Part shown: piece after piece, positions 862 through 26,879 of the stretch | Numbering within the stretch: the first letter of the stretch is position 1 | Layout of the letters: each line of letters begins with the position of its first letter | IMG/VR virus record: IMGVR_UViG_3300035682_000004 | Direction: 5' to 3' (one strand) | Origin: a virus | Length of the DNA: 64,000 nt | Notes under the pieces: model-generated | Database searches by the model: none | What the model saw: the letters and a program-made list of their open reading frames with translations, nothing else | Told to the model about the DNA's origin: nothing | Made by a program: the position numbers and the translations under genes

Positions 862-891
862 GTCTATATTTATTGAAAACTAATAAGTTTT

Positions 892-1744: not shown

Positions 1745-1780
1745 GGAACCATATTTTTTTGATATTTATAATTAAAAGGC

Positions 1781-2215
1781 ATGGCAACTTTCACTTCCCA
1801 AATATTTGAAATTTTAACTTTAAATGGAGATAACGTAGGATCTTCTGTTACTAACACAATTAATGATATTAATTATGTAGATAACAGAATCCTTAGCATC
1901 CCTACTGGGTCAGTTACTACATTATTTTCGATGGATTCAGTACCAGGTGCTGGAACCTTTGTAACAAGTAGTGTTAAATATATTAGAGTAACTAATAATT
2001 CAACTATTACACCTATTAAATTAATTGTATCTTCTTCAACAGAAGCTATGAGTTATTTAATTTCTGCTGGTAGTTCATATATGATATCTACAAGTAAAAT
2101 GACAGGAAGTGTAAGTGTTGGTACTGGTAGCTTTAATTTTAGTGACATCCAATCAGTTAAAGCACAACCTTCATCAAGCGCTGCTTCAATAGAATATTAT
2201 ATCATAACAACTTAA
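1781..2215 (+). CDS. Hypothetical virion structural protein (Ser/Thr-rich, beta-rich)
   Basis: Lies in the head-neck cluster, is preceded by ATATTTAT, and has a low-charge composition. Confidence 0.6.
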   Translation: MATFTSQIFEILTLNGDNVGSSVTNTINDINYVDNRILSIPTGSVTTLFSMDSVPGAGTFVTSSVKYIRVTNNSTITPIKLIVSSSTEAMSYLISAGSSYMISTSKMTGSVSVGTGSFNFSDIQSVKAQPSSSAASIEYYIITT

Positions 2216-2224
2216 TAAAATAAT

Positions 2225-3995: not shown

Positions 3996-4864
3996 TGGCA
4001 GGAAGAATACCTATACCTAAAACACAAAAAGAGATACTTGTAGATCAACAAGTACCTTTTGATGTTGAAAGAGGTAACCCTAATAAGTCTAATAATCCTA
4101 ATAGAGCTACACAAACTTCTTTTAGAAATGATAATACTAAACCATTTAGTATTGGTCTTCAAGATATTGATGGAGCTATTATGTATTACTTTCAAAATGT
4201 TATTAAACCTTTTGTAGTACAAAATGAAGAAAGAATAGAAGTTCCTGTTATATATGGTTCACCTGAAAAATGGAAATCATATCAAAAGGATGGTTACTAT
4301 AGAGATGTAAACGGTGCTATTATGGCTCCGCTTATTATGTTTAAAAGAGATAGTATAGAAAAAAATAGGACTGTAGCTAATAAATTAGATGCTAATAAAC
4401 CTAATAATTATACAGTAACAGAAAAACAATACTCTCAAGGTAATGTATATAGTAATTTTAATGTTTTAACTAACAGAGCACCAACTACTACATATTATGC
4501 TTCAGTAGTACCTGATTATTTAACATTAACTTATAGTTGTGTAGTATTTACTTACTATGTAGCTCAATTAAATAAAATAGTAGAGGCAATTGAATATGCC
4601 TCAGATGCGTATTGGGGTAACCCAGAACAATTTCAATTCCAAACTCGTATTGACACATTTAATACAGTAACAGAATTACAAAATGATGCTGAACGATTAG
4701 TTAGAAGTACATTTAATATTAAAGTATATGGATATATAGTTCCAGAAGTATTACAAAAAGATTTAAACTCTATCAAGAAATTTTCAAGTAAGAGTAAAAT
4801 AATTATAAATTTAGAATCAACAATAACAAACCCAACAAACGAAATACAATATGGCCAGAATTAA
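3995..4864 (+). CDS. Tail terminator / sheath stabiliser (gp15-like)
   Basis: [18 protein letters not shown] and VPDYLTLTY motifs; synteny. Confidence 0.65.
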
Positions 4865-7800
4865 TAACTCCATACCTAGAAATAATGTACGATTTTTAGA
4901 TCAAGTATCTATAGCTTCTTTTGAAGTGCCTACTTCAGAAGGTAGTAGTGGTATTGGTACATCTGGACTTTCAGGTTTATCAGGTATTTCAGGCCTAAGT
5001 GGTACTGGTGGTTCAGGTCTTTCAGGCTTAAGTGGCATTGGTAGTTCAGGTATTTCAGGTTTATCAGGAACAGGTACATCAGGTATCTCAGGACTAAGTG
5101 GTACTGGAACATCTGGTTTAAGTGGTTTATCAGGAACAAATGGTACAAATGGTACTTCAGGACTTTCAGGTTTAGAAGGCTTATCAGGTATAAGTGGCTT
5201 ATCAGGTATAAATGGTACTTCAGGACTTTCAGGCTTAGAAGGTTTGTCAGGTTTAAGTGGTACTGGAACTTCAGGCTTATCAGGATTAAGTGGAACTGGC
5301 ACCTCAGGATTAAGCGGTTTATCAGGAATTAATGGTATTTCAGGTTTAAGTGGATTAGAAGGTCTTTCAGGTCTTAGTGGTATTGGCACTTCAGGACTTT
5401 CAGGTTTAAGCGGTATTAGCTCATCTGGTATATCTGGCTTAAGTGGAATAGGTACATCAGGTATCTCAGGATTAAGCGGTTTATCAGGAACTAATGGTAC
5501 CAATGGTACTTCAGGCCTTTCAGGATTAGACGGTGTATCAGGATTAAGTGGTACAGGTATATCTGGTTTATCAGGTTTAAGTGGTGCTTTAGGTATTTCA
5601 GGTTTAAGTGGTTTATCAGGCACAAATGGTAACTCAGGACTTTCAGGTCTTGAAGGTACATCAGGACTTTCAGGACTAAGTGGTACTGGAACATCAGGAT
5701 TGTCAGGTTTAAGTGGAATAGGAACATCAGGTCTTTCTGGTTTATCTGGTACTAATGGAGCATCAGGTCTTTCAGGCCTAGAAGGTACATCAGGTATTTC
5801 AGGACTAAGTGGTACCGGAATCTCAGGACTTTCAGGTCTTAGTGGTATTAGTACTTCAGGCCTTTCAGGTTTATCAGGTATTAATGGTACTTCAGGACTT
5901 TCAGGTCTAGAAGGTACATCAGGTATAAGTGGATTAAGTGGTACTGGTCTATCTGGTCTTTCAGGATTAAGTGGTACAATTGGTACATCCGGCTTATCAG
6001 GTATTAATGGTATTTCAGGAACAAGTGGAACGGATGGTTTAAGTTGTTTAAGTTATACTGTAACCTATCAAGTAGGTGGCGGTGATTTATATTTTGATTA
6101 CAATGATTGCTCGGGTGCTTTAGTAAGTGTGGGGCCTGTAACAAGTGGTTCTTTAACATTTTGTGCGCTTAGTTTCGGGAGTTCTCCCAGCATAGTTATA
6201 ATTTCGGGTAATGCTACGATTTTAAGTAACGGAGTTTGCGTAGGCACAAGTGGTTTATCTGGTTTAAGCGGAACAGGAACATCAGGACTTTCAGGTCTTA
6301 GTGGAATAGGAACATCAGGTCTTTCTGGTTTATCAGGTATTAGTGGTACAAACGGAACTTCAGGTTTATCAGGTTTAGAAGGTACATCAGGTTTATCTGG
6401 TTTAAGCGGAATAGGAACTTCAGGTATTTCAGGTCTAAGTGGAATTAGTACATCAGGCTTATCAGGTATAAGTGGTTTAGAAGGTAATTCAGGCTTAAGT
6501 GGTTTATCAGGTACATCAGGTTTAAGTGGTACATTAGGTATTTCAGGATTAAGTGGTTTATCAGGAACTAGTGGTGATTCAGGTCTTTCAGGTCTATCAG
6601 GTTTAAGTGGTAATTCAGGTCTAAGTGGTACCTCAGGTCTTTTAGGTAATTCAGGTCTTTCAGGTTTAGAAGGTACATCTGGTTTAAGTGGAATAGGAAC
6701 TTCAGGCTTATCAGGTATAAGTGGCTTATCAGGTACATCAGGTATAAATGGTATTTCAGGTTTAGAAGGTACTTCAGGATTAAGTGGAATAGGAACATCA
6801 GGTCTTTCAGGTACTTCAGGTTTAAGTGGTGAAAGTGGTTTATCAGGTATAAATGGCACGTCAGGACTTTCAGGTGTATCAGGCATCTCAGGTCTAAGTG
6901 GTACTAATGGAGAGTCAGGTTTAAGTGGATTAAGTGGTACAGTAGGTACTTCAGGTATAAGTGGTTTATCCGGTCTAGAAGGTATATCAGGTTTAAGTGG
7001 TACATCAGGTTTAAATGGTACTTCAGGTATTTCTGGTTTAAGTGGCACTTTAGGTTTATCAGGTATAAGTGGCTTATCAGGTTTAGATGGCAATTCAGGT
7101 CTTTCAGGACTTTCAGGTTTAAGTGGCTTAAATGGTACATCAGGTTTATCAGGTTTAAGTGGTATTTCAGGTATAAACGGTGACTCAGGTCTTTCAGGTC
7201 TAAGTGGTACATCTGGAATTTCAGGAACATCAGGATTGTCAGGTATATCAGGTATAAACGGTGACTCAGGTCTTTCAGGCTTGTCAGGTACAAGTGGTAT
7301 TTCTGGTTTAAGTGGTACATTAGGTATATCTGGTTTATCAGGTACATCAGGTATTTCAGGATTAAATGGTGACTCAGGTCTTTCAGGTGTAAGTGGTTTA
7401 TCAGGTCTCTTAGGTACATCAGGTATTTCAGGTCTAGAAGGTATATCAGGAATTTCAGGTTTATTAGGAACTTCAGGTATAAGTGGATTAAGTGGTACTT
7501 TAGGTGTAAGTGGTCTATCAGGTATTTCAGGTTTAGAAGGTACATCAGGAATTTCAGGTTTAAGTGGTACAGTAGGTACCTCAGGCCTATCAGGTTTAAG
7601 CGGCACATCAGGTATATCAGGTATAAATGGTGACTCAGGTCTTTCAGGATTATCAGGCATCTCAGGTACAAATGGTATTTCTGGTTTAAATGGCATATCA
7701 GGTTTATCAGGTGAAAGTGGTTTATCCGGCTTATCAGGTACATTAGGACTTTCAGGATTATCAGGTACAAGTGGCATTTCAGGATTATCAGGTGAATTAG

Positions 7801-10800
7801 GTTTATCCGGGTTAAGTGGTACATCAGGTTTATCAGGAACGAGCGGCATTTCAGGTTTATTAGGTACTTCAGGTTTAAGTGGTACATCAGGTCTTTCAGG
7901 TTTATCAGGAACTTTAGGTATAAGTGGATTAAGTGGTGAGTCTGGCTTGTCTGGAACTTCAGGCTTATCAGGTTTAAATGGTACATCAGGACTTTCTGGT
8001 TTATCAGGTACAAGCGGTATCTCAGGTACAAGCGGTATATCAGGCTTAAGTGGTACATCAGGTTTAGGATTCACAGCACAAACTGTTGGTCAATCTTTTG
8101 TAACTAATGGTTCTTTAGTAGGTACAAATATTAATTTTTATGTTGCTGATTACGGAGCATTTGCAGTAGGTAATTTTATTAATTTAGTTGACCAAACTAG
8201 TGGTAGTACATTCTACTATAATGGTAAAATAACATTAATTCAATTTGCTGGAGGATTTGGATGGGCTATCCATATGGATGTGTTAGGTTATGGTGGAACA
8301 CCAATTTCATCTCCATCTAATAGTTGGTTAATGGAATTAACAGGAGCAACGGGTACATCAGGAATTTCAGGCTTAAGTGGCTCATCTGGTCTTTCAGGTG
8401 TATCCGGTTTATCAGGAGAATCAGGTCTTTCAGGTATATCAGGAACTTCAGGACTTTCAGGCTTATCCGGTTTATCTGGTTTAAGTGGTATAGGTACATC
8501 AGGTATATCAGGACTTTCAGGTATGTCAGGTACCTCAGGTTTAAGCGGTTTATCAGGACTTTCTGGTATAGATGGTATATCAGGTCTTTCAGGAATATCA
8601 GGCTTATCAGGATTAAGTGGCACCTCAGGATTGTCAGGTACAAGCGGTATTTCAGGCTTATCAGGTGAATCAGGCATTTCAGGATTATCAGGAACATTAG
8701 GTATAAGTGGTTTAAGTGGCACATCAGGTCTTTCAGGTTTATTAGGTGAAAGTGGTTTATCCGGTCTTAGTGGTACCTTAGGTCTCTCAGGCTTAAGTGG
8801 TGAATCAGGTTTATCAGGTACAAGCGGTATTTCAGGTTTAAGTGGTACTTCAGGCATATCAGGTTTATCAGGTGAATCAGGTTTATCTGGTCTATCAGGT
8901 TTAAGTGGTACTTCAGGTTTATTAGGAACAAGTGGCATTTCAGGCCTATCAGGTGAAAGCGGATTATCTGGTCTATCAGGTACAAGCGGTATTTCAGGTC
9001 TAAGCGGTACATCAGGTTTATCAGGTGATTCAGGACTTTCTGGTTTAAGTGGTTTATCAGGTACAAGTGGAATATCTGGTCTAAGTGGTACTTTAGGTAT
9101 AAGTGGCTTAAGTGGTGACTCAGGTCTTTCAGGATTATCAGGATTATCAGGTACATCAGGATTTTCAGGTTTAAGTGGTATATCAGGACTTTCAGGAATT
9201 GATGGTACATCAGGTCTTTCAGGATTATCAGGTACAAGCGGTATTTCAGGACTTTCAGGTTTATCAGGTGAATTAGGTTTAAGTGGTTTATCCGGCTTAA
9301 GTGGCTCATCAGGTATTTCAGGTATAAATGGTGACTCAGGTCTTTCAGGTTTAAGTGGTACTTCAGGCATATCAGGATTAAGTGGTACTTCAGGTACATC
9401 AGGTTTATCAGGTACAAGCGGTATTTCAGGTCTATCAGGTGAAAGTGGTTTATCAGGATTATTAGGTTTATCAGGTTTATCAGGTATAAACGGTATTTCA
9501 GGTTTATCAGGTATTTCAGGTTTAAGCGGTGAATCCGGCTTATCAGGTACAAGTGGTACTTCAGGACTTTCAGGTTTAAGTGGTACATCTGGTTTATTAG
9601 GAGAGTCAGGATTGTCAGGTACAAGTGGTATTTCAGGCATAAATGGTAATTCAGGTTTGTCCGGGTTAAATGGTACATCAGGCTTAAGTGGTTTATCAGG
9701 TACATCAGGCATCTCAGGATTAAGTGGTGAATCAGGTTTATCCGGAACATTAGGTATATCAGGTTTATCAGGTCTTTCAGGACTTAGTGGTTTAGAAGGT
9801 ACATCAGGTCTTTCAGGACTAAGTGGCACTTCAGGACTTAGTGGTTTAGAAGGTACGTCAGGTCTCTCAGGACTAAGTGGCACTTCAGGACTTAGTGGTT
9901 TAGAAGGTACGTCAGGTCTCTCAGGACTAAGTGGTATATCAGGAACATCAGGTATAAGTGGTCTTAATGGAGAAGCTCAATCTGGAGCATCAGGTACAAG
10001 TGGTATTTCAGGATTAAGTGGTAATGTAGGAACATCAGGACTTTCAGGTCTAAGTGGTACAGTTGGTACTTCAGGCTTATCAGGTCTTTCAGGTACTAAT
10101 GGTACAAACGGAGAATCAGGATTAAGTGGTTTAAGTGGTACAATAGGTACTAGTGGTCTTTCAGGTTTAAGTGGAGCATCAGGAACAGGAGGTGGAAGTG
10201 GTACTTCAGGTCTTTCAGGTTTATCAGGTATAGATGGAACATCAGGTTTAAGTGGTACTTCAGGTATTGAAGGAATATCAGGACTTTCAGGTATAAGCGG
10301 CTTATCAGGTACATCAGGACTTTCAGGTCTTTCAGGTACATCAGGTTTAGATGGTACCGGAGGAACATCAGGTTTAAGTGGTACAAGTGGTCTATCAGGC
10401 TTAAGTGGTATTAGTGGCTTAAGTGGCACAAGTGGTCTTTCAGGAACATCAGGTTTAGATGGTACAGGAGGAACTAGTGGTTTAAGTGGTACATCAGGAT
10501 TATCAGGAATATCAGGTTTATCTGGTCAAAGTGGTCTTTCAGGAACATCAGGACTTTCAGGTGAATCAGGTTTATCAGGTCAATCAGGTATAAATGGAAC
10601 TTCAGGTTTAAGTGGTATTAGTGGTTTAAGTGGTACAAGCGGTTTATCAGGTATAAGTGGTTTAGATGGTACAGGAGGAACTTCAGGATTAAGTGGTACT
10701 AGTGGTTTAAGTGGTACAAGTGGTCTATCAGGAATATCAGGTATTGATGGAACATCAGGACTAAGTGGTTTATCAGGAACTAGTGGCTTAAGTGGTACAA

Positions 10801-11924
10801 GTGGTCTTTTAGGTACATCAGGTTTATCTGGTATCTCAGGATTAAGTGGTGAATCAGGTTTAAGTGGATTAAGTGGTACTATAGGAACTTCAGGCATCTC
10901 AGGATTAAGTGGTACTTCAGGTATAAGTGGTACAAATGGAGAATCAGGATTAAGTGGTTTATCAGGTTTAAGTGGTACAAGTGGCATTTCAGGTTTATCA
11001 GGTATAAGCGGTATTGATGGAACTTCAGGATTAAGTGGTACATCTGGTTTAAGTGGTCTTTCAGGTATAAATGGAACTTCAGGTTTATCAGGTATATCAG
11101 GTTTATCAGGTGAAAGTGGTTTATCAGGTTTAAGTGGTACTTTAGGTTTATCAGGTCTTTCAGGCCAATCAGGTATTTCAGGTTTATCAGGAACTTCAGG
11201 TATAAGTGGTACAAACGGAGAATCAGGATTAAGTGGTACTTCAGGTCTTTCAGGAACAATAGGAACTTCAGGACTTTCAGGACTAAGTGGAATCTCAGGA
11301 ACTAATGGTACAAGTGGAGAGTCAGGTCTATCAGGTTTAAGTGGTACAGTAGGAACAAGCGGTCTGTCAGGATTAAGCGGTATATCAGGCTTATCAGGTA
11401 CATCAGGAATTTCAGGATTAAGTGGTACTTCAGGTACAAATGGTGAATCAGGACTAAGTGGAATTTCAGGTCTTTCAGGAACAATAGGTACAAGTGGTAT
11501 CTCAGGCTTATCAGGTACATCAGGTATTTCAGGTCTAAGTGGTACAGTTGGCACATCAGGACTTTCAGGCACATCAGGCTTATCAGGTATATCAGGTACT
11601 CTAGCTTTAACAGGTACAACAGATAATGGTGTGATTACTTATATAAGTTCTTCAAATTCAGGACAAGTAGAAGCTAATTTTACATTTAATGGTACTAGTT
11701 TATCATTAACAGGAAGTCTTACTTCATCAGGAGACATAACAGCACCTTATATTTCCGCATCAAGTGGTATATATGATAATTCAGGAGCAGCCGCTATACA
11801 ATTTGTATATATATCATCATCTAAATTATTGACATATATAACACCTTTAACAGATGGTGATATACTCCAGTATAGTGGAAGTGTGATGACTGGTTCAAAT
11901 CTTATTGACGGAGGTACATTCTAG
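4851..11924 (+). CDS. Giant (Ser-Gly-X)n collagen-like fibre protein 1 (2357 aa)
   Basis: Gly at every third residue over most of its length (SGL/SGT/SGI), two non-repeat inserts, and a C-terminal IDGGTF motif typical of phage fibre proteins. Confidence 0.8.
9777..9934 (+). repeat. About 3 tandem copies of a 54-bp unit inside fibre gene 1
   Basis: TCAGGACTTAGTGGTTTAGAAGGTAC... starts at 9777, 9831 and 9885. Confidence 0.85.
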
Positions 11925-11973
11925 GTATATTTATACGAGACCTATATAGGTATCCTTTATATAAACCATAGAT

Positions 11974-14900
11974 ATGGCCCAAAAAATAAAATTACGCAGA
12001 AGTTCTGTAGCAGGGAATGCCCCTACTACAACCCAATTAGAACTGGGAGAGTTAGCTATCAATACAAATGATGGTAAAATATATTTTGAAAAATCATCTT
12101 CAGTAGGAGAATCAATTCAACAAATAGTTGTAACAGATGCTTGGATTACAGGGTCAGTTAATGTATCAGGATCAATTGCTGTATCAGGTAGTGTAACCTT
12201 TCCTAATATTCCTCAAGGTACAACTGAAACTAATATTGTATTAAAAGACTCTAATGGTAATTTAGTTTATAGATCAGATTTAAATATATCAGGTCTATCT
12301 GGTCTTTCAGGTACTTCAGGATTAAGTGGAACAAGTGGACTATCAGGTCAATCAGGACTTTCAGGTGCAAGTGGTTTATCAGGTACATCAGGTATTGATG
12401 GTACAAGTGGATTATCAGGCTTAAGTGGTACTTCAGGACTTTCAGGAACATCAGGTCAAAATGGTGCTTCAGGTCAGGTTGGTACAAGCGGTTTAAGTGG
12501 AACTTCAGGTTTATCAGGTGTATCAGGTACAAGTGGCTTAAGTGGCACTTCAGGTATAGATGGTACTTCAGGTTTAAGTGGTACATCAGGTCTTTCAGGA
12601 ACATCAGGTCAAAATGGTACTTCAGGACAAGTAGGAACAAGTGGCTTAAGTGGTACATCAGGTCTATCAGGAACATCAGGTATAGATGGTACTTCAGGTC
12701 TTTCAGGTACATCAGGTATAAGTGGTAGAAGTGGTATTTCAGGTTTATCAGGTACATCTGGTTTATCCGGTGATTCTGGTTTATCAGGTTTATCAGGTAC
12801 TTCAGGGTTAAGTGGTATTTCAGGAACAAATGCTGGTATAACATCTTATACCAATCCAGGTAATGACCGTGTTATAACATCAGTAAATGCAAGTACAATA
12901 AATTCTGAAGCTAATTTAACATTTAATGGTTCACTTTTAAGAGTATCATCTTCAATACGGATTACTAGTGGTTCTGAAAGTTTTGACATAAATCAAGGAG
13001 CAAATCCTACCCAATCAATAGCTATTGGTGGTACTATATTAACAAATAATACAATAGGACAATTAAATATTGGTATAGGTGATGGAGCTCTTACAAACAA
13101 TACTACAGGTCAAGAAAATACTGCTATTGGTTTATATGCATTACAAGTAAACTCAACTGGCAATTATAATGTAGCTGTAGGTAATTTAGCTTTACAAAAT
13201 ACATCAGGTAGTAATAATACAGCACTTGGATATTCAGCAGGAGGTGGTGGAGGTGTTGATTCATCAACATCAGCTTCAGTATTTATAGGTTATAATACTA
13301 CTCCTAATAGTAATAATCAAGTTAACCAAATTGTTATAGGAGCAGATGCTGGAGGTAATGGTTCTAACACAACAGTAATAGGTAATTCAAATACTGTTAG
13401 TACACAATTACGAGGAACTATAACAGGTTCAGGAGTAAAATTAACAGCTATACCAGTAGGTACAACTGAAGATAGAATATTAGTATCAAATAATTCAGGA
13501 AATATATTCTATAGAACTAATTTAAGTCTATCAGGTTCATCTGGTTTATCAGGAACTTCAGGATTAAGTGGTACTTCAGGTTTATCAGGACAATCAGGAA
13601 TCTCAGGTTTAGAAGGTATATCAGGTTTAAGTGGTCGTTCAGGTTTATCCGGTCTCTCAGGTTTATCCGGTGTTGATGGAATTTCTGGTATATCAGGTTT
13701 AAGTGGTCAAGTTGGAACTTCAGGTCAAGTTGGAACAAGTGGTATTTCAGGTTTAAGTGGTGCAGTAGGCACATCGGGTATCTCAGGTCTAAGTGGTCAA
13801 ATAGGCGCTTCAGGACAAATTGGAACTTCAGGCTTAAGTGGATTAAGCGGTCAAGTAGGAGCATCAGGACAAATTGGTACTTCAGGATTAAGTGGTACTT
13901 CAGGTCTATCAGGAACATCAGGACAAGTAGGTGCTTCAGGCCAAGTAGGAACTTCAGGCTTAAGCGGTACGTCAGGATTAAGTGGCACAAGTGGTCTTTC
14001 AGGAACATCAGGTCAAAATGGGGCTTCAGGTCAAGTAGGAACATCAGGTCTTTCAGGCCAATCAGGTATAAATGGTACAAGTGGTTTAAGTGGAACTTCA
14101 GGCTTATCAGGCACAAGTGGTTTATCAGGAACTTCAGGACAAAATGGTGCCTCAGGTCAAGTCGGAACTTCAGGTCTTTCAGGCACAAGTGGTATTTCAG
14201 GTACATCGGGTATCTCAGGTCAATCAGGACAAGTTGGAGCATCAGGCCAAATAGGAACAAGTGGTTTAAGTGGTACATCAGGTTTATCAGGTACAAGTGG
14301 TCTTTCAGGTCAATCAGGCCAAGTAGGAGCCTCAGGACAAGTTGGTACTTCAGGTTTAAGTGGTACAAGTGGTTTAAGCGGTACTTCAGGACTTTCAGGC
14401 ACAAGTGGTATATCAGGAGCTTCAGGCCAAGTTGGAGCATCAGGCCAAATTGGAACATCAGGACTTTCAGGAACTTCAGGTTTATCAGGTCAATCAGGTA
14501 TTAATGGTGCCTCAGGCCAAGTTGGTACTTCAGGCTTAAGTGGTACTAGTGGCTTAAGTGGTACTTCTGGTTTAAGTGGTACAAGCGGTTTATCAGGAAC
14601 ATCAGGTCAAAATGGAGCTTCGGGTCAAGTTGGTACAAGCGGTTTATCAGGAACATCAGGACTTTCAGGTACATCAGGTCAAGTAGGTGCATCAGGTCAA
14701 GTAGGAACAAGTGGTATTTCAGGTCTAAGTGGCCAAGTTGGTGCCTCAGGACAAGTAGGAGCATCAGGTCAAGTAGGAACAAGCGGTATATCAGGACTTT
14801 CAGGCCAATCAGGTCAAATTGGCGCTTCAGGCCAAATAGGTACAAGTGGTATTTCAGGACTAAGTGGTACAAGTGGCATATCAGGTTTAAGTGGCACATC

Positions 14901-17900: not shown

Positions 17901-17973
17901 ATTATTAATTGCTGGTATTCAAGAATTAAATGATAAGGTAAATAATTTAGAAGAACAACTTAAAAATAAATAG
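11974..17973 (+). CDS. Giant (Ser-Gly-X)n tail fibre protein 2 with C-terminal peptidase S74-type intramolecular chaperone (1999 aa)
   Basis: N-terminal KIKLRRS...[16 protein letters not shown] baseplate-binding-type motif; GXS and GQVGAS repeats; NTAIG-type repeats; C-terminal SDERLKK...[15 protein letters not shown]...[15 protein letters not shown]. Confidence 0.85.
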
Positions 17974-17975
17974 TT

Positions 17976-18560
17976 ATGACTATAACAGGTTCAGGTAATC
18001 CACTTTCATTAAATGATTTAAATGTAGAATTTAATAGAGGAGCCACTTCTCAACTTTCACTTTCTCAATCATTTGCTGGTACTTATGCTCAATATGGTGC
18101 TATAAATAGAAATACTAGCCCCGGTCAAAATGTAACTAATGTATTTAATGTAGGTACTGATTTTGATATATATTGGTTTTATGATTATAATGACACAGAA
18201 AATAATTATTGGGATTATACATTTACTAATGACTCTGTAAATGATGTTGGACAAATACAAATTTCAATTGGAGGAACAGATATCTATTTGTACAATACTT
18301 TTCCTTGTTGTAATTTCCAAGACGCTACATCAGGATTTATTGATACTACAACATCAGCAACTACAGGAGCTAATTTAGATCTAGCTATAAAAAACACCTA
18401 TGGTATCGCGTATGTAGATATATTAGTTATTGATCCTGACACATCAGCTACTATATACACTGTAACTGGTGATGATCCAAATAACTATGGTTCTTTTCCT
18501 ACTTTAGCTACATTATACGGATATCAAAGAATGCAATGGACTATGACTTTTTATGATTAA
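17976..18560 (+). CDS. Hypothetical fibre-associated protein (possible tip or adhesin)
   Basis: The N-terminus GSGNPLSLNDLNVEF resembles small proteins that follow S74 fibres; start is tightly coupled to the fibre stop. Confidence 0.55.
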   Translation: MTITGSGNPLSLNDLNVEFNRGATSQLSLSQSFAGTYAQYGAINRNTSPGQNVTNVFNVGTDFDIYWFYDYNDTENNYWDYTFTNDSVNDVGQIQISIGGTDIYLYNTFPCCNFQDATSGFIDTTTSATTGANLDLAIKNTYGIAYVDILVIDPDTSATIYTVTGDDPNNYGSFPTLATLYGYQRMQWTMTFYD

Positions 18561-18581
18561 TAATATTTATAATAAAACAAA

Positions 18582-18905
18582 ATGGCAATACAAGTAACAA
18601 ATTTCAACCCCGTATGGAAATACGAAAATGTAAGAAATGAAAATCTAGCTCAAGTTGAGTACACAGATGGCTCTTATATCTTTATTAACTGCGAAACAAT
18701 TAATAGAACCTCAGTAACTATTAATACAATAGTTTATGATAAAAATTCTTCTATAACAGATGCAAAATTAAGAGGACGTATAACATATGAATTTGTTCCT
18801 ATGAATGTTGAAGGAAACTTATTAGGATTAGCTCATGATTATGTTATAGCTCAATTAACAACTCTTAATCCTGGAGTAACATTTACTAAAGTAAGTTTAA
18901 TTTAA
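18582..18905 (+). CDS. Hypothetical protein
   Basis: ORF preceded by ATATTTAT at 18563. Confidence 0.6.
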   Translation: MAIQVTNFNPVWKYENVRNENLAQVEYTDGSYIFINCETINRTSVTINTIVYDKNSSITDAKLRGRITYEFVPMNVEGNLLGLAHDYVIAQLTTLNPGVTFTKVSLI

Positions 18906-18907
18906 AC

Positions 18908-18939
18908 TTGGATATCTAAAACCAAGTTATTATATTTAT
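18908..18939 (+). promoter_or_regulatory. Bacteroidota-type promoter (TTGG ... TATATTT), overlapping an ATATTTAT motif
   Basis: TTG at 18908, 20-nt spacer, TATATTT at 18931; lies upstream of the glycosyltransferase pair. Confidence 0.6.
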
Positions 18940-18958
18940 TAGTAAATACAATTAAGTT

Positions 18959-20272
18959 ATGACCCAAAATGATAAAATAACTGTTATCATTCACACGGAG
19001 AATGAAACTAAGTTATCAACTTTATTAGATCAATTACATCAACATCCCTTAAAATCTCAATTTCAAACTTTACAAGTTAATTGTAAAGGCATCACTCCTT
19101 GGTTAGAACCAAATATGTTAAACAAGTTAACAACACTTGCTTATCAAAATTATGTTATTACACCTACTCAAAGTCAACCTGTATCTTCAATTGTAGAACT
19201 TATATCTAAAACTAAAACTGAATATAGTTTAATTATAGATGAGTCTAATACACACTTTGACGTTAAAGAATGGAATACACTGTATAATACCATTTTATTA
19301 GCACAAACAAATGACTTATTACGCCTTAATTGGGATACTAATTATCAATCTATAACATGGTTTATAGCGGATTTAATTAGTCAAAAAACAAGACATAAAT
19401 TTAACCTAGATGACACTTCAGACTCAGAACGATATTTTAAAAAAATAGACCATCCATTATTTTATGAACGTATTATTTATGTTGATGGTGGATTAGGTGA
19501 CCATGTTATGGCATATCCATTACTAGAAAAAATAGGAAGTGATTGTTATGTTTGTTCTATTTATCCTTTTTCTATAAATCACATTAATATTAAAGGATTT
19601 ATTAATTGGACTGATGAATTATTTGGTGGATATAAACGATTTGTTTACACTTACGGTTCATCAAATAACTCTCCTACAATTATAGACGCATTTTTTGAAA
19701 TGTATGGAGAAAAAAGACATACAACTAATATTTTAAAATATACAGGAGTTAAAACTAAATTTGAAAATCCAACAGGTAAACCATTAGCTTTAATAAGTAC
19801 AACAGCAGCTAAAATCCAGAATCAAGATTCAAATAAAGACTGGGTTGATGTTAGATGGTTTAAATTAATATTTGAATTAAAAAAATTAGGTTTTCATGTT
19901 ATTCAAGTAGGTTCTCATAAAGATGATCAAATTCCTCTTTCACCAGCTCCAGCCGGAGTTGATGGTAAATTTTTAGATAAATCTATTCCTGAATTAGCAG
20001 GATTAATTGATGAAGCTAAATTGTGGTTAAGTGTGGATACATTTGTTCATCACTTTGCAGCTTCTGTAAACCCACATTCTGGAATTTGTTTAACTCCATT
20101 TTATAACAATCATGCTAAACATCCAGGTGTAAAGTATATTGAAAAAGATTGTGGTAAAAATTACTATGATAGAAGATGGTGGTTAGATTTACAACAACCA
20201 GAAAGAAAAGAATGTATGAATCTAATTAAATTAGATGATGTATTAAATGTTATTAAAAGTAAAATAAAATAA
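18959..20272 (+). CDS. Glycosyltransferase, GT9 / heptosyltransferase-like (GT-B fold)
   Basis: GGLGDHVMAYP, NKDW, VIQVG and LSVDTFVHHFAA motifs. Confidence 0.7.
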   Translation: MTQNDKITVIIHTENETKLSTLLDQLHQHPLKSQFQTLQVNCKGITPWLEPNMLNKLTTLAYQNYVITPTQSQPVSSIVELISKTKTEYSLIIDESNTHFDVKEWNTLYNTILLAQTNDLLRLNWDTNYQSITWFIADLISQKTRHKFNLDDTSDSERYFKKIDHPLFYERIIYVDGGLGDHVMAYPLLEKIGSDCYVCSIYPFSINHINIKGFINWTDELFGGYKRFVYTYGSSNNSPTIIDAFFEMYGEKRHTTNILKYTGVKTKFENPTGKPLALISTTAAKIQNQDSNKDWVDVRWFKLIFELKKLGFHVIQVGSHKDDQIPLSPAPAGVDGKFLDKSIPELAGLIDEAKLWLSVDTFVHHFAASVNPHSGICLTPFYNNHAKHPGVKYIEKDCGKNYYDRRWWLDLQQPERKECMNLIKLDDVLNVIKSKIK

Positions 20273-22101
20273 TGAAACCATTATCATTAACAACACCTAT
20301 TTACAATAATGTAAATAATAATAAAACAGCTAAATTAACTTGGTTAGCTAAATATGATGATTATGCATCAATGGGAATTTTGTCTCAACGTTTATTAGAA
20401 CAATTAAATGATACTATAGATTTATCTTGTGAAGCTATAATTGGAAAAACAGAAACTAAAAACCCATTAATTCATACTTTATTAGATAAACCATTAAATA
20501 CTGATTTAGGTATTATGTTCTCTTATCCTGATATGGTACGATATTTAGATAATTTTAAAACTAAAGTAATTTACACTGGAGTTGATACAACAGGTGAAGC
20601 TGGTAATTTTGTAGCTAATGGGAACTCAGCAGATTTTTTATTAACACCTTCTAACATATCAAAAAATAGAATAAAAAATATGGGTATCACTAAACCTATA
20701 TTTGTATTACCACATGGAATTGATCCTAAAATATTTAAATATACACCTAGAATTAAAGGAGATAAATTTAAATTTTTATATGTTGGAGAATGTTCAGATA
20801 GAAAAGGTATATTTCATACTTTAAACGCTTTTATTAATTTATTTGGAAATAGTGATAGTGTAGAATTACATATTAAATCAAATGATGCTATGTTGTTTTA
20901 CAACAGTAAAGAAGTAAAAGACATTATAAAAGATTACACTAATATATTTTGGCATATAAGTGATGAAGGACATGATAGAGTAATTGAATTATATAAAGAA
21001 TGTCATGCTTATGTTTATCCATCTAGAGGTGATTCGTTTGGAATGACTCTATTAGAAGCAATAGCTTGTGGTTTACCAACAATAGCAACTTCAGAACCAG
21101 GTGCAACAGAATTAATTAAAGGTAGATACTATAATGTTTCTACTAAATCAGTACCTGTTAAAAATCATCCTTGGTTTATTGGTAATTGGGGTGAACCAAA
21201 TCTTAAAGATTTAATAAAACATATGAAATATGTTTATGACTATTATGATTTAATTATTGAAAGTAAAGAGTTAAAAGAAAACTCAGACTATGTCAGAGAA
21301 AATTATTCTTGGGAAAAAATAGCTAATATGTTTAAAAATGATATTTTACCTAAATTAATTAAACCAACTAAAGTACTTACATTATTAACATCATATGATA
21401 GACCTCATCATATTAAAAATGTTATTAATTCATTAAAAAATATTCAAGAACCAGGAATTATAAATGATATTTATATTGTTGAAAATTCACATCCTGAATA
21501 TAAAAATGAAGCACTAAAAACTATTAAAGAAAACATTAATGAACGATTTAAAGTTCATAACTCAGAATTTAATATGGGTCAAAGAGCAGCAATGCTTCAA
21601 ATGTTTGATGATATGAATATTGATGATTATGATTTTATTCAATTTACAGACCAAGATAATTTATTTGTTGAACCTATAAGTACGTATTGTAATATATTAA
21701 ATCAATTCCCAGACAAATATGTTACTACAGGTTATATGAGTAAAGAACATGGTGAATTAGGATGGATAAAAACTCAATTTGGAAACTTATGTGAAAAAAC
21801 AGCTTGCAGAGCCGGACATATGGTTATGCGAGTTAAAGATATTAAAAATATGATGCCTATTCATTTAGATAGAATGCATAATAATTCATATGTAAATTCA
21901 TCATGGAATGCTGGTTTAGATTGGGAATTAACTCATTGGAATCCAAAATCACCAGGAGCACAAGGTAAACAAAATTTTATATTATGTGTTCCTGGAGGAG
22001 TACTACATAAAGGTACAGATAGTACAATGTATGACTGGCCAGTAGAAGAAAATGAGTATAAATTAGAAGAGTTAATAGAATTAAGAAAAAATAAACTTTA
22101 A
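20272..22101 (+). CDS. Two-domain glycosyltransferase (N-terminal GT4 plus C-terminal GT2-like)
   Basis: GT4 motifs RKG, YVYPSRGDSFGMTLLEAIACGLP and YSWEK; C-terminal LLTSYDRP...IVEN...FTDQD (DxD). Confidence 0.8.
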   Translation: MKPLSLTTPIYNNVNNNKTAKLTWLAKYDDYASMGILSQRLLEQLNDTIDLSCEAIIGKTETKNPLIHTLLDKPLNTDLGIMFSYPDMVRYLDNFKTKVIYTGVDTTGEAGNFVANGNSADFLLTPSNISKNRIKNMGITKPIFVLPHGIDPKIFKYTPRIKGDKFKFLYVGECSDRKGIFHTLNAFINLFGNSDSVELHIKSNDAMLFYNSKEVKDIIKDYTNIFWHISDEGHDRVIELYKECHAYVYPSRGDSFGMTLLEAIACGLPTIATSEPGATELIKGRYYNVSTKSVPVKNHPWFIGNWGEPNLKDLIKHMKYVYDYYDLIIESKELKENSDYVRENYSWEKIANMFKNDILPKLIKPTKVLTLLTSYDRPHHIKNVINSLKNIQEPGIINDIYIVENSHPEYKNEALKTIKENINERFKVHNSEFNMGQRAAMLQMFDDMNIDDYDFIQFTDQDNLFVEPISTYCNILNQFPDKYVTTGYMSKEHGELGWIKTQFGNLCEKTACRAGHMVMRVKDIKNMMPIHLDRMHNNSYVNSSWNAGLDWELTHWNPKSPGAQGKQNFILCVPGGVLHKGTDSTMYDWPVEENEYKLEELIELRKNKL

Positions 22102-22170
22102 TTTGGATCTTTAAAATATCTTTGTATATTTATATATATAAACTTAACCCATAAACCCCATTAAAAAATT

Positions 22171-22428
22171 ATGTCAACACTTTTAATTTTTATTATAATT
22201 ACGGTATTAGTATTAACTGGTATCTTATTTGTAATCGTAGGAAAAGAAAATACACCTACAAACAAAAAACCTAATTCTTTATTCCCAGTTGAGGACTTTC
22301 CATCATTTGAAGATGCTCCTGTAGTTGAAGAAAAACCATTTACTGAACATACTCAATCAGCTAAAAAGAAAAAACATTACTATAGTAATAAAACAAAAAA
22401 ACCAAAACAAGTTAAAGCTAATCAATAA
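22171..22428 (+). CDS. Small membrane-anchored hypothetical protein
   Basis: Hydrophobic N-terminal helix and basic C-terminus. Confidence 0.6.
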   Translation: MSTLLIFIIITVLVLTGILFVIVGKENTPTNKKPNSLFPVEDFPSFEDAPVVEEKPFTEHTQSAKKKKHYYSNKTKKPKQVKANQ

Positions 22429-22862
22429 TGGCTCATATCCATTTATCATTACAAGAAATCTATAAACTTGATTCAGAGCTTAATGGTTTTGTAAATCAAG
22501 AAACAGGTGAAATTTTATCATTAGGATTATTAAGTGAAAATTTAAGTTTACCTACTAAATATTGGTTAACTAATTTAGCTAAAAGAACATCATCTGAAAA
22601 ATCTATTATTAATCAATTAAAAGAAGATTTAATTGTAAAATATGGTACTAAAGATAAAAATGATAATTTTGAAATTCCTGTATGGACTGATGAAACTAAA
22701 ACAAATTTTAATCCATTATATATACAATTTCAAGAAGAATTCAATGGTTTATTACAAGAAGTAAAAGAAATTGAATATCATGAATTTAAATTAGAAGAAT
22801 TTAATGATGTTAAAACATCAGATAATTATATTATATTTTATAAATTAATCCAAATAGATTAA
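22428..22862 (+). CDS. Hypothetical protein
   Basis: Coupled ORF with codon usage like neighbouring genes. Confidence 0.65.
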   Translation: MAHIHLSLQEIYKLDSELNGFVNQETGEILSLGLLSENLSLPTKYWLTNLAKRTSSEKSIINQLKEDLIVKYGTKDKNDNFEIPVWTDETKTNFNPLYIQFQEEFNGLLQEVKEIEYHEFKLEEFNDVKTSDNYIIFYKLIQID

Positions 22863-22884
22863 TATATTATTATGTGATATTTAT

Positions 22885-22908
22885 AAACCGCTAGCAGTAG
22901 CGGTTTTT
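22885..22908 (+). terminator. Intrinsic terminator
   Basis: AAACCGCTA-GCAG-TAGCGGTTT followed by T residues. Confidence 0.75.
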
Positions 22909-22943
22909 CTCTTATCTTTCCATATTTATAATAAAACTATTAA

Positions 22944-25900
22944 ATGGCATTAACTTTATCTAGCGCAAGTATATCTACTGGACAAACAGTACAAGCATCC
23001 CAAATAACTCAATCTATTGATGCTTTAACAGGTACAGTAGCTTATGATATAACAATAAGCGGTTCATTAACTGTTACAGGATCATTAGGTGTAAATGGTA
23101 CATTAAATGCGACAGCTTCTAACGCAGTTTCATCTTCTTATGCTTTAACAGCATCATTTGCTTTAAATGGCGGTGGAGGAAGTGGTACATCAGGTATTTC
23201 AGGTTTAAGTGGTCTTTCAGGTACAAGCGGTCTTTCAGGTTTAAGTGGCACTGGTACTTCAGGTTTATCTGGTACAAGCGGTCTTTCAGGTTTAAGTGGA
23301 GCTGGTACTTCAGGTTTATCAGGAACTTCAGGCTTAAGTGGCCTTTCAGGAGCTACAGGTACAGGTACAAGTGGTTTAAGTGGAACTTCAGGTTTATCAG
23401 GTACAAGTGGTACAAATGGTAACTCAGGTTTATCTGGTATATCAGGTTTAAGTGGTCAATCAGGTCAATCAGGTATAAGTGGTCAAAGTGGTATTGATGG
23501 AAATGGCCAATCAGGTATTTCAGGAACAAGTGGTTTATCTGGTTTATCTGGAGCTACAGGTTCTGGTACAAGTGGTTTATCAGGCACAAGTGGTCTTTCA
23601 GGATTAAATGGTCAAAGTGGTACAAACGGAGACTCAGGTCTCTCAGGTACAAGCGGTCTTTCAGGATTAAATGGTCAAAGTGGTACAAACGGAGACTCAG
23701 GTCTCTCAGGTACAAGCGGTCTTTCAGGATTAAGTGGCCAAAGTGGTACTAATGGAAGTGGTACATCAGGTATAAGTGGAACTTCAGGTTTATCAGGTCA
23801 AAGTGGTCAAAATGGTACTAATGGAGATTCAGGCTTATCTGGTATCTCAGGTTTATCAGGCTTAAGTGGTACATCAGGTATAAATGGTAACTCAGGTCTA
23901 TCAGGAACATCAGGTATTTCAGGAACATCAGGTATAAGTGGTATTAATGGTGATGGCCAATCAGGAGCATCAGGATTAAGTGGCACATCAGGCTTGTCAG
24001 GTACATCAGGACTTTCAGGCTTAAGTGGTACATCAGGTACTAATGGTAATTCAGGATTAAGTGGAACTTCAGGTTTAAGTGGTTTATCAGGTATATCAGG
24101 TTTAAACGGTACTAATGGAGACTCAGGTCTTTCAGGTACAAGTGGTCTTTCAGGCTTATCAGGAGCTACAGGTTCTGGTACAAGCGGTTTATCAGGTACA
24201 AGTGGCTTATCAGGTACAAGTGGTACTAATGGAAACTCAGGCTTAAGTGGTACATCAGGTTTATCCGGATTATCAGGTCAAAGTGGTACAAATGGTAATA
24301 ACGGAGACTCAGGTCTTTCAGGTACAAGTGGTCTTTCAGGATTAAGTGGAACTTCAGGTTTATCAGGTACATTAGGTATTTCAGGAATTTCAGGTACAAG
24401 TGGTACTAATGGAAACTCAGGTCTTTCAGGTACAATTGGTCAATCAGGATTAAGTGGTACATCTGGTATTTCAGGTACATCAGGTATAAGTGGTATTAAT
24501 GGTGATGGTCAATCAGGTATTTCAGGAACATCAGGTTTATCCGGTTTATCAGGTACATCAGGTTTATCAGGTCTAAGTGGTACTTTAGGTTTATCAGGTA
24601 TTTCAGGTACAAGTGGTCAAAATGGCACAAACGGAGATTCAGGTATTTCAGGTACAAGCGGTTTATCTGGTCTTTCAGGAACTTCAGGTTTATCAGGAAC
24701 ATCAGGTTTAAGCGGTACATTAGGTCTTTCAGGTATAAGTGGTCAAAATGGTACAAACGGAGACTCAGGTATATCAGGAACAAGTGGCTTATCAGGTACA
24801 TCAGGTTTATCAGGTTTAAGTGGTATATCAGGTACATCAGGTACAAATGGAGACTCAGGACTTTCAGGTACATCAGGTCTTTCTGGTTTAAGTGGTACTT
24901 TAGGTTTATCAGGTATTTCAGGAACATCAGGTATAAGTGGTATTAATGGTGATGGCCAATCAGGTCTTTCAGGAACTTCAGGTTTATCCGGTTTATCAGG
25001 TACATCAGGTATTTCAGGCTTAAGTGGTACAAGTGGTATTTCAGGTCAATCAGGTATTTCAGGTCAAAATGGTACTAATGGAGATTCAGGTATCTCAGGT
25101 ATAAATGGTCTCTCAGGTATTTCAGGTCAAAATGGTACTAATGGAGACTCAGGTATTTCAGGCTTAAGTGGTACAAGTGGTATTTTAGGACTTTCAGGTT
25201 TAAGTGGTACTTCAGGTTTGAGTGGTACTAATGGAGACTCAGGTTTATCAGGTCAATCAGGTTTATCAGGAACAAGTGGTCTTTCAGGTCAATCAGGTAT
25301 ATCAGGTGAATCAGGCTTATCAGGAACAAGTGGTCTTTCAGGCCAATCAGGTATATCAGGTATTTCAGGTGAATCAGGCTTATCAGGAACAAGTGGTCTT
25401 TCAGGCCAATCAGGTATATCAGGACAATCAGGTCTTTCAGGTGAGTCTGGTCTATCAGGTTTAAGCGGTACTTCAGGCTTATCAGGAACAAGTGGTCTTT
25501 CAGGCCAATCAGGCTTAAGTGGTACTTCAGGCTTATCAGGCCAATCAGGTATTTCAGGTGAGTCTGGTCTATCAGGCTTATCAGGAACAAGTGGTTTAAG
25601 TGGTACCTCAGGCTTAAGTGGCACTTCAGGCTTATCAGGTACATCAGGACTTTCAGGTTTAAGCGGCACTTCAGGCTTATCAGGAACAAGTGGTTTAAGT
25701 GGTACCTCAGGCTTATCAGGTCTCTCAGGTACATCAGGTTTATCAGGAATATCAGGTCTTTCAGGTACATCAGGTTTAAGTGGTACTTCAGGTATATCAG
25801 GAGCAACAGGTCCTGTAGCAGGTTCAGCTAATCAAGTAGTTTGGAAAAACGCTTCTAATATAGCTACTGGCTCAGTAGGATTAACATTTGATGGTACTGT

Positions 25901-26879
25901 TTTAAATGTTACCGGTCGAATAACAAGTAGTGGAGATATATTAGTTAATGGTATAACAGTAGGTAATGGAGCTAATTCTACAGATTCTAATACTGCTGTA
26001 GGTCAAGCTGCTTTAGGTGCTAATTCAACAGGAACAGCTAATACCGCTATAGGAGGAAATGCATTATATCTTTCAAGTGGAGGAAGTGCTAATACAGCAG
26101 TAGGATTTGCTGCAGGGCAAGATATAGAAGGTGAGGGTAATACAGCTCTAGGTAGAGCAACTTTATCCGCAACTAATTTAGCAGGAAGTTACAATATAGG
26201 AATAGGATATTATGCCGGATTAGCAGTCACCGCAGGAAGTGGTAACATATTAATAGGCTCAGGTTCAGGTAAACTTATAACTAATGGTAGTGATAATGTT
26301 ATTATAGGTGGACATCCAGGTTCTGCTTCTTTAACTAAAGTTGTAGCTTTAACTGATGCTTCAGGTAGTGTTATTTTATGGGGTACAGGAAGTAAAGTAA
26401 CTATAGGAGCAGCAGCTACACCAAATGCTACCTTAGATGTTAGAGGTGATACTATAATCACAGGTTCATTAACTGTAACAGGACCTATAAGAAATATTGT
26501 GAATGATGGATTTGTAAGTTGTAGTCTATCAGTAACAGGAACAGCACAAGGACGAACCATATTAGCCGAATTTGAGGAAGTAGATGGTACACCTTTAAGT
26601 AATCCTCGCCAGCTAATACATTGGTGGACATCAACTACTCAATATGGAGCTGCTTCTATACCAGCAATATCATCACCTACATATTCAATAATCTCAGGAA
26701 GTCAAGTTGTAGCTAATACAACAGGCTCAATAAATCACGCTGTAACAAATACATCAGGTGCATTTGCTGTACGAATATCAACCCCAGCTGATTTAGGAAC
26801 AACAACAGTATGGTTTAATACAGAAGTACAAGGTATAATATACTCAATAAGTACTACGTTAGCTACATCAGTATCGTAA
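22944..26879 (+). CDS. (Ser-Gly-X)n collagen-like fibre protein 3 (1311 aa)
   Basis: About 880 aa of Gly-periodic repeat, then a [11 protein letters not shown] module, NTAVG-type repeats and a globular C-terminus. Confidence 0.8.
23592..23733 (+). repeat. 63-bp tandem duplication inside fibre gene 3
   Basis: GGTCTTTCAGGATTAA... starts at 23592, 23655 and 23718 (last copy partial). Confidence 0.8.

Follow-up and report, generated by a model that had tools for sequence, protein, structure and literature searches.

A 64,000-nucleotide stretch of viral DNA (IMG/VR record IMGVR_UViG_3300035682_000004; analysed as a whole and called the window here), part of the genome of a freshwater T4-like myovirus with a G+C content of ~30%, carries three genes for giant, nearly proline-free proteins built largely of Gly-X-Y triplets, and between the second and the third of them two genes for multidomain glycosyltransferases (GTs). 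Their products are probably trimeric fibres of the collagen type, belonging to the fibre module of this phage. Judged from its gene context, O-glycosylation of these fibres by the adjacent phage enzymes is a candidate that is well supported but unproven, and we give it about an even chance. The initial annotation of this DNA had proposed the three Gly-periodic genes, 5667 codons in total, and each was recovered as an open reading frame (ORF) in the place proposed, all on the plus strand (Table 1).

When runs of at least four triplets were counted, Gly-X-Y sequence made up 83%, 67% and 66% of fibres 1, 2 and 3 (651, 446 and 287 triplets), with longest unbroken runs of 180, 278 and 95 triplets, respectively. 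Serine fills the Y position in 531 of 651 (82%), 311 of 446 (70%) and 235 of 287 (82%) of these triplets, and proline was detected 0, 2 and 1 times within the runs, in agreement with the earlier remark that Ser precedes Gly and that Pro is nearly absent. The X position is mainly L, T or I in fibres 1 and 3 and Q, L, T or A in fibre 2, whose triplet types include 101 Gly-Gln-Val and 80 Gly-Ala-Ser. The Pfam model PF01391 (Collagen) matched the repeat segments of all three fibres (256, 204 and 156 bits), which is a match to the family model. Copies of the DNA repeats were 65-82% alike in nearly all arrays, the repeat Gly codons were GGT, GGA and GGC, and the Y-Ser codons came from both the TCN and the AGY sets. 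Because of these diverged DNA copies and mixed codons, we attribute the Gly/Ser periodicity to selection at the protein level and not to recent slippage. Long ORFs running antisense across the repeats (4901-17260 of the window, minus strand; e.g. 6098-8074, 658 amino acids (aa)) are spurious and reflect the composition.

The runs are set in a defined architecture. Fibre 1 consists of a 35-aa N-terminal anchor, 17 runs and a 106-aa C-terminal domain, with two globular islands at residues ~399-486 and ~1074-1164. Fibre 2 has three collagen segments of 60, 278 and 108 triplets, each with a conserved flank, ..VYR(S/T)(D/N)L.(I/L)SG, on its N-terminal side, and fibre 3 has a 77-aa N-terminus, a collagen tract, a GPVAGSAN cap and a 350-aa C-terminal domain. 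The cap, GPVAGSAN(Q/E)VV in full, lies C-terminal to two of the fibre 2 collagen segments and also to the fibre 3 tract. Ten breaks interrupt the latter, each a one-residue deletion giving Gly-X-Gly, and the same type of break, which is one tolerated in collagens, recurs in the first part of fibre 1. Assuming a straight and fully triple-helical molecule, fibre 1 would measure 559 nm (0.286 nm per residue), so that the early estimate of more than 500 nm is arithmetically correct.

An adjacent trimerisation domain was looked for in fibre 2, whose C-terminus is a Peptidase_S74 intramolecular chaperone (PF13884, 57.6 bits). In known tail spikes and fibres, this domain promotes trimerisation and then cleaves itself. 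The sequence SDERLK at residue 1884 follows the pattern Ser-Asp-x-Arg-x-Lys, which we take to be the S74 cleavage site, and by analogy the S74 part of fibre 2 is probably auto-cleaved after trimerisation. Folding of residues 1680-1999 of fibre 2 as three copies led to a score of 0.93, compared to 0.00 for the best of three controls; in a calibration made with two copies instead of three, 21 of 30 proteins known as one-chain pairs from their solved structures came up to this mark, compared to 0 of 23 whose structures are single chains. Contact agreement between runs was at least 73% and the partner pLDDT at least 77. As S74 trimers have already been solved, this result may reflect likeness to known structures. 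In the repeat part of the model, every third residue from Gly 1699 and Gly 1702 to Gly 1726 was in confident inter-copy contact, between two of the three copies, as a collagen-type core would give. The PF01391 matches, the S74 domain and the C-terminal trimer model of fibre 2 support the prediction of collagen-type, probably trimeric fibres.

Several other Y residues stabilise a triple helix better than Ser, so Ser at this position is not expected from helix stability alone, which argues for another role of its hydroxyl function. Recombinant, unglycosylated (Gly-Ala-Ser)19 of the protein Bucl8 gave a triple-helix signal in circular dichroism (CD), and host-guest data list 33 C for (Gly-Ala-Ser) against 47 C for Pro-Hyp-Gly (PMC7682875). 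The original suggestion that sugars are needed to stabilise the helix is therefore not upheld.

Each of the two enzymes encoded between fibres 2 and 3 is a member of a large metagenomic family. For the first, P0004, searches of PDB sequences by phmmer and with the family profile led to nothing useful, and it was placed by fold search only; the Pfam GT9 model (PF01075) matched residues 269-371 only, with 26 bits at a gathering cut-off of 22. In the structural model, built on 36 relatives (pLDDT 92.5), residues 169-437 form a GT-B unit of the GT9 fold, with Z scores of 18.8 to 3tov, 18.3 to WaaF, 17.3 to TibC and 16.1 to WaaC. The superposition on TibC (4rap) covers 287 residues, the most of any GT9 match, with a root-mean-square deviation of 4.7 A. 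Residues 1-167 form a GT-A-like alpha/beta domain (Z ~10-11 to GlfT2, the LH3 transferase domain and DPMS).

TibC is of interest since TibC/TibA and Aah/AIDA-I of E. coli pair a cytoplasmic GT9-fold enzyme with a neighbouring gene for a repetitive adhesin, many repeat serines of which are heptosylated from ADP-heptose (family BAHT, TIGR04414; PDB 4rap, 4rb4; PMC4358343). P0004 shares with TibC this fold and a catalytic-Asp motif: G-x-G-D-H is invariant in the P0004 alignment (G178, G180, D181, H182), and with Asp-110 as the catalytic residue of TibC (PMC4358343), D181 is read as the predicted catalytic base. Profile comparison of the P0004 family with TibC-type domains of other phages gave a weak match (probability 77.5%, E 1.9e-5) that spans the C-lobe and some of the Cys-rich region. 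Unlike TibC, P0004 stays below the family model, has the GT-A-like domain in place of the N-terminal beta-barrel and keeps two of the four iron-finger Cys positions in the profile alignment (C398 and C419); it is not itself a member of the TibC family (BAHT). The presumed acceptor differs as well, being a collagen triple helix and not a beta-helix, and three further transferase domains are present. In GenBank phages, the glycosyltransferase region found no match by DNA search and P0004 none by tblastn.

The second enzyme, P0005, starts with a GT4-type GT-B unit (residues 16-365; PF00534, 66.4 bits; Z 28.6 to BshA and 27.8 to chlorovirus B736L). Its C-terminal ~245 residues (366-609) gave no Pfam match at E up to 1; they show a beta-alpha-beta GT-A topology with a D460-Q-D462 motif kept in 26 of 32 relatives, and a language-model similarity of 0.97 to GT2 clusters. 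In a fold search with the whole P0005 model, GT4 matches filled the list, so residues 366-609 were not covered. The initial annotation had placed a GT9-like gene and a GT4+GT2 fusion between fibres 2 and 3. The positions are right and a GT4+GT2 fusion is reasonable, with the GT2 half assigned without a family-model match; the additional N-terminal GT-A-like domain of the first enzyme had gone unnoticed.

The enzymes share a promoter-like motif with the virion genes. ATATTTATA is found at 17 sites on the plus strand, compared to 5.6 expected (0 of 100 shuffles reached 17), and is strand-specific. It lies 5' of the unit formed by a 107-aa ORF (o107) and the two enzymes, and 5' of fibre 2, fibre 3, sheath, tube, hub and tape measure; most checked copies are some 10-60 nt 5' of structural-gene starts. 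From this placement, it is probably the late promoter core of this phage, and its presence before both the enzyme unit and virion genes is read as co-expression of the two. The T4 late promoter TATAAATA was also considered and rejected, because its 24 sites (17 expected) are mostly antisense and show no enrichment on the coding strand. One copy of ATATTTATA, at 21467, is inside the GT4-GT2 gene, ~100 nt beyond the domain boundary; in some relatives, the second P0005-type domain is a separate 248-aa gene.

In most related IMG/VR contigs, a P0004-like gene was located between Gly-X-Ser fibre genes and the sheath gene. The protein is conserved end to end (46-93% identity) and often fused to methyltransferase, GT4 or GT2 domains. 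Its partner enzyme has 248 to 1382 aa in these contigs; when all homologues are considered, it can be as small as a GT2-like protein of 248 aa or as large as 1380-2287 aa, with as many as eight domains. This pattern, in which the first enzyme is conserved and the enzymes for extension and tailoring vary, would suit a glycan assembly line. For homologues at ~50% identity, Gly-X-Ser ORFs lie no more than 10 kb away in five of seven cases (L019, L020, L114, L115, L117), and the remaining two are 3.6-4.5 kb from a contig end. Homologues of heptose-1-phosphate adenylyltransferase and heptose-7-phosphate kinase adjoin P0004 homologues in L018, L114 and L117 (193 bits, over the cut-off, for the adenylyltransferase of L018), which points to a nucleotide-heptose donor. 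A cupin, a SDR epimerase/dehydratase and a sugar acetyltransferase also occur in this neighbourhood, and from their sequences these genes look like a small set for nucleotide-heptose supply and tailoring, a set that the window does not carry. Collagen tract length is hypervariable among the close relatives L002-L017 (sheath 79-91% identical), with 18 to 376 triplets in the equivalents of fibre 3 and 119 to at least 783 in the fibre 5' of the enzymes; in L002 and L011, the upstream giant fibre is replaced by about ten ORFs of 200-340 aa. In L115 (2-3919), the public gene call lies on the antisense strand of a 1682-aa Gly-X-Ser frame.

Beyond this lineage, a DNA pattern for Ser-Gly-Leu-Ser-Gly-Thr-Ser-Gly detected 73 stretches in ~55 viral contigs, nearly all of which hold giant proline-free Gly-X-Ser ORFs of up to 4021 aa. 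Such ORFs are common in viral contigs; the largest have at least 4021 aa with 975 triplets, and unbroken runs of up to 684 triplets were observed. GT4 or GT2 genes were present in every Gly-X-Ser contig that is at least 50% complete. In 10 of 12 other contigs examined, a multidomain transferase (700-2970 aa) lies within ~4 kb of the fibre gene, in varying order and strand. The P0004 family itself was found in 3 of 31 contigs, all of its own lineage. The Aah/TibC O-heptosyltransferase domain (TIGR04414), described for the heptosylation of serines in the TibA and AIDA-I adhesin repeats (PMC4358343), was detected in 19 of the 31 (245-342 bits, cut-off 200), with 285-305 bits for the enzymes of G001, G003 and G031, and over the cut-off in 0 of 14 control genomes. 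The positive contigs represent ~10 distinct lineages and include both genomes that are at least 90% complete; true BAHT members stand beside Gly-X-Ser fibres of sister phages. Compared to the window, the sheath is 79-91% identical in P0004-type contigs and 39-67% identical in TibC-type contigs; in those of the latter with 53-67%, the enzyme is mostly located in the same fibre-to-sheath module (not in G017). As sister phages have the TibC-type enzyme in the same slot, the clade of the window appears to have replaced it or to have diverged past recognition. The X residue is S, T or A in ten TibC-type lineages, L, I, T or Q in P0004-type lineages and Tyr or Ile in G025. The latter contig (locus L110) also has a 2970-aa ORF with five GT2 matches at 6822-15731, ~2 kb after its (Gly-Tyr/Ile-Ser)n fibre gene.

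The nearest isolate, Flavobacterium phage vB_FspM_immuto, has an identical gene order and 69% nucleotide identity over the region from sheath to hub, and with a sheath comparably related to that of the window it served as matched negative control. In its complete genome, neither a run of six Gly-X-Ser triplets nor a TIGR04414 domain nor a P0004-like gene is present; the GT4 and GT2 genes that it does have are ordinary ones, located elsewhere and unrelated to fibres. Co-occurrence of such fibres with glycosyltransferases across phages, set as a test beforehand by the initial annotation, was positive, with immuto as the matched negative. Two contigs that seemed to have fibres without transferases (G012 and G020) are uninformative, as their fibres lie at contig ends with the downstream side missing. 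A cultured carrier was identified in Microcystis phage Mel-JY01 (L118, PP395634.1), which has a Gly-Thr/Ser-Ser fibre and a TibC-type fusion enzyme. The fibre ORF (plus strand, ~1000 aa or more, 202 triplets) extends from the start of the record to 3052, and the enzyme (4750-8430, 1226 aa) is listed as 'methyltransferase FkbM', its C-terminal TibC-type domain being 44% identical to that of G001. In the deposited annotation, antisense Pro-rich 'hypothetical proteins' (1-651 and 739-2298, minus strand) cover the fibre.

The observations can be combined as follows. The three genes would give homotrimeric collagen-type fibres with Gly, at every third residue, buried in the core and the side chains at X and Y (at Y mostly Ser) facing outward, and the flanks and C-terminal S74 chaperone of fibre 2 probably nucleate and register the trimer. 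Both enzymes would be made late, alongside the virion proteins, and would most likely build a short O-linked glycan on exposed fibre serines: the conserved GT9-fold enzyme may initiate it, probably with heptose from ADP-heptose, and the GT-A-like, GT4 and GT2-like domains would lengthen it. The outcome would be a stiff, protease-resistant, glycan-sheathed fibre of several hundred nm for host contact. Action on the fibres is the most economical reading because the exposed Y-serines are the sole feature shared by every type of fibre, and the enzyme families suggest that serines are first O-heptosylated and the glycan is then extended. For the glycan, stiffening, protease protection, hydration and adhesion are equally possible roles.

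A number of points weigh against this explanation. The structural Z scores of P0004 are ties that do not separate enzymes of the lipopolysaccharide (LPS) type from those of the protein type. P0004 gave no match to TIGR04414 at E <0.01 (the cut-off of 200 bits was not reached), its best NCBIfam match is RfaQ (19.6 bits), and its remote relatives match LPS heptosyltransferase models in 37 of 60 cases compared to 13 of 60 for TibC, all weakly. No sugar-nucleotide genes were found within the 64-kb window. A large transferase cluster adjoins fibres of only 16-18 triplets in L015, and the transferase is 17 kb from the fibre in G014 and ~72 kb from it in G017, where the fibre is cut by the contig start. 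As the linkage is in part synteny inherited within a single broad group of T4-like phages, the contigs do not count as independent trials. As unglycosylated (Gly-Ala-Ser)n folds, glycosylation would not be required for folding. In addition, tail-fibre islands of aquatic myophages gather glycosyltransferases that have been interpreted as modifiers of the host LPS (PMC7029224).

The chief rival explanation has the fibres as described and the transferases acting on the host envelope (LPS core, O-antigen or capsule), with their location explained by a hypervariable host-recognition island; the purpose might be to block superinfection or to keep progeny from sticking to debris. It stays for the window because neither sequence nor fold distinguishes P0004 from LPS-type enzymes; the likeness of P0004 and its remote relatives to LPS heptosyltransferases is as great as that to TibC. 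It also draws on immuto, with its ordinary GT4 and GT2 genes unrelated to fibres, and on pelagimyophage islands with tail fibres, collagen-repeat proteins, rfaE and glycosyltransferases, for which O-chain modification was proposed (PMC7029224). However, the sister lineages have a true Aah/TibC-type enzyme, from a family known only for protein serine heptosylation (PMC4358343), and the fibre-transferase pair stays together even far from the sheath (G003, G011) and is jointly absent in immuto. Moreover, the enzymes of the window are under the structural-gene promoter motif, and late expression in a lytic phage would leave little time for LPS remodelling. We consider envelope modification unlikely, if still to be taken seriously. 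Distinctly less probable is that the transferases modify other virion proteins (capsid, sheath or other fibres) or make a free polysaccharide, with bare Gly-X-Ser trimers stabilised by their flanks and low temperature. The repeated adjacency is to Gly-X-Ser genes and not to capsid or sheath genes, and the repeat type goes with the enzyme type (S/T/A versus L/I/T/Q), although phylogeny gives the same pattern; what favours other acceptors are the mycobacteriophage transferases, reported to act on the C-termini of capsid and tail-tube proteins (Freeman et al., 2023), the folding of unglycosylated (Gly-Ala-Ser)n and the many transferases beside very short collagen tracts in L015.

We see a comparably slight chance that the repeats are not collagen helices at all and form flexible mucin-like linkers or polyglycine-II bundles, which would make the length estimates meaningless. 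Gly/Ser-rich sequences are classic flexible linkers, Ser at Y is said to have a low triple-helix propensity from the host-guest peptides of Persikov and colleagues in 2000, and the confident Gly contacts in the repeat part of the trimer model are few and between two copies only. Against this, Gly periodicity is strict although the DNA has diverged, extending to 278 triplets in the window and to 684 in relatives, the breaks are of the one-residue Gly-X-Gly type known from collagens, and the runs are flanked by conserved caps and a trimerising S74 chaperone; moreover, (Gly-Ala-Ser)n, represented by 80 triplets in fibre 2, gives a triple-helix CD signal (PMC7682875). Glycosylation of the phage DNA was weighed as well and is very unlikely. 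Phage DNA glycosyltransferases are common and a 7-deazaguanine pathway is encoded in the genome (QueC, 54374-55228), but the enzymes lie in the structural cluster behind its promoter-like motif, well away from the 42-62 kb region with its replication and nucleotide genes. The enzymes have GT9, GT4 and GT-A folds, their neighbours in relatives belong to the heptose pathway, and T4 alpha-glucosyltransferase ranks 42nd for the GT4 domain (Z 19.6 versus 28.6).

Glycosylated collagen-like fibres have precedents outside phages. BclA of the Bacillus exosporium is a collagen-like surface fibre glycosylated on Thr of GPT repeats. Mimivirus modifies its own collagen with virus-encoded collagen glycosyltransferases, the acceptor being hydroxylysine (PMC9546862). 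Unlike in these two systems, the candidate acceptor here is Ser at Y, the virus is a bacteriophage and the chemistry would be of the GT9 type. Prokaryotic and prophage collagen-like proteins, e.g. EPclA (E. coli O157 prophage, PMC3368898) and Bucl8 (Burkholderia, PMC7682875), have Gly-X-Y repeats between trimerising non-collagen domains, in tail-fibre genes of phages as here, and (Gly-Ala-Ser)n of Bucl8 is a Pro-free Gly-X-Ser repeat able to form a triple helix (PMC7682875). Compared to these, the tracts of the window are 10 to 30 times longer (up to 278 unbroken triplets versus 6-38) and combine near-universal Y-Ser with a hydrophobic X, and transferases are encoded alongside. In mycobacteriophages, transferases beside structural genes modify virion proteins, as proposed here; the acceptors reported by Freeman et al. 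(2023) are capsid and tail-tube C-termini, with other enzyme families and reportedly no collagen repeats. The host recognition cluster of pelagimyophages and cyanomyophages is a hypervariable island in the T4-like structural module with fibres, collagen repeats, rfaE-type genes and glycosyltransferases, the enzymes being assigned to host O-antigen modification; the Gly-X-Ser fibre class and TibC-type enzymes were not noted there (PMC7029224). Phage collagen-like fibres, Pro-free (Gly-Ala-Ser)n helices, mycobacteriophage virion glycosylation and Mimivirus collagen glycosylation are already known, and the pairing of giant (Gly-X-Ser)n fibres with TibC-type or divergent GT9-fold enzymes appears to be undescribed in the searched literature, in which no paper combined heptosyltransferase, phage and collagen-like.

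The window begins inside a gp23-type major capsid gene (PF07068, 210 bits), which is followed by PhoH and a head-tail adaptor. After these head genes come the fibre/glycosyltransferase block and then tail sheath, tube, baseplate hub and a 753-aa gene in the tape-measure position, with replication and nucleotide genes from ~42 kb onward. An ORF of 188-197 aa is found in the same place as the 194-aa ORF of the window in most, but not all, related loci. Neither Pfam nor PHROGs matched the 194-, 107- and 85-aa ORFs, the C-terminal half of P0005 or the islands outside the repeats in fibres 1 and 3. QueC (129 bits) supports a 7-deazaguanine DNA-modification module, and 5' of it a class II ribonucleotide reductase is encoded at 47050-48903 and DUF6884 is strongly matched at 46287-46766.

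Table 1. Features of the fibre/glycosyltransferase region and related loci (positions refer to the window unless a locus is named).
Feature	Position	Strand	Remarks
Fibre 1	4851..11924	+	2357 aa; PF01391 256 bits
ATATTTATA copy 5' of fibre 2	11927..11935	+	motif scan
Fibre 2	11974..17973	+	1999 aa; PF13884 57.6 bits; trimer model
S74 chaperone part of fibre 2	17623..17970	+	from SDERLK motif, residue 1884
194-aa ORF directly 3' of S74 fibre	17976..18560	+	ORF list; no Pfam or PHROG match
Late-promoter-like motif ATATTTATA	18563..18571	+	5' of o107/GT9-like/GT4-GT2 unit
107-aa ORF (o107)	18582..18905	+	ORF list; opens putative glycosyltransferase unit
Glycosyltransferase 1 (P0004)	18959..20272	+	437 aa; PF01075 26 bits; fold match; invariant columns
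Glycosyltransferase 2 (P0005)	20272..22101	+	609 aa; PF00534 66.4 bits; fold match; topology
Two small ORFs (85, 144 aa) between enzymes and fibre 3	22171..22862	+	144-aa ORF matches phrog_1401
ATATTTATA copies before o85 and fibre 3	22126, 22877, 22922	+	
Fibre 3	22944..26879	+	1311 aa; PF01391 156 bits
ATATTTATA copies before sheath, tube, hub, tape measure	27169, 29285, 29875, 30913	+	
Other ATATTTATA copies	1762, 21467, 33207, 34961, 53360, 62811	+	motif scan
Gly-X-Ser ORFs in other viral contigs	L065 932-12994; L041 1052-11251; L067 1-8892		examples from loci L021-L093
Sugar-pathway genes beside P0004 homologues	L018 9408-9887; L114 8505-9995; L117 11264-12500, 16644-18152		

For annotation, the fibres matter because gene callers often pick the antisense strand of Gly-X-Ser repeats. 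Collagens of hundreds of nm that contain neither Pro nor hydroxyproline, whether sheathed in glycan or bare, are of interest for recombinant biomaterials, and the cultured carrier Mel-JY01 makes the fibre-glycosylation hypothesis directly testable. More broadly, and with a probability that we put a little short of even, aquatic phages may share a widespread, undescribed form of virion glycosylation on the Y-serines of (Gly-X-Ser)n fibres, with heptose probably as the first sugar, in which a very divergent GT9-fold enzyme took the slot of TibC/Aah and the repeat type is tuned to the enzyme. On this reading, protein serine heptosylation would reach both a new family of enzymes and an acceptor of the collagen type. 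If the fibres are indeed glycosylated, this would be the first bacteriophage to sugar-coat a collagen-like fibre and a second mode of virion glycosylation after the capsid and tail-tube type of mycobacteriophages. It would also be a viral use of the rare serine-heptosylation chemistry of E. coli adhesins. The glycosyltransferases in tail-fibre islands of aquatic myophages would then have to be re-read as modifiers of the virion and not of the host LPS, with a bearing on host range, on the stickiness of the particles and on the fate of viral particles in water.

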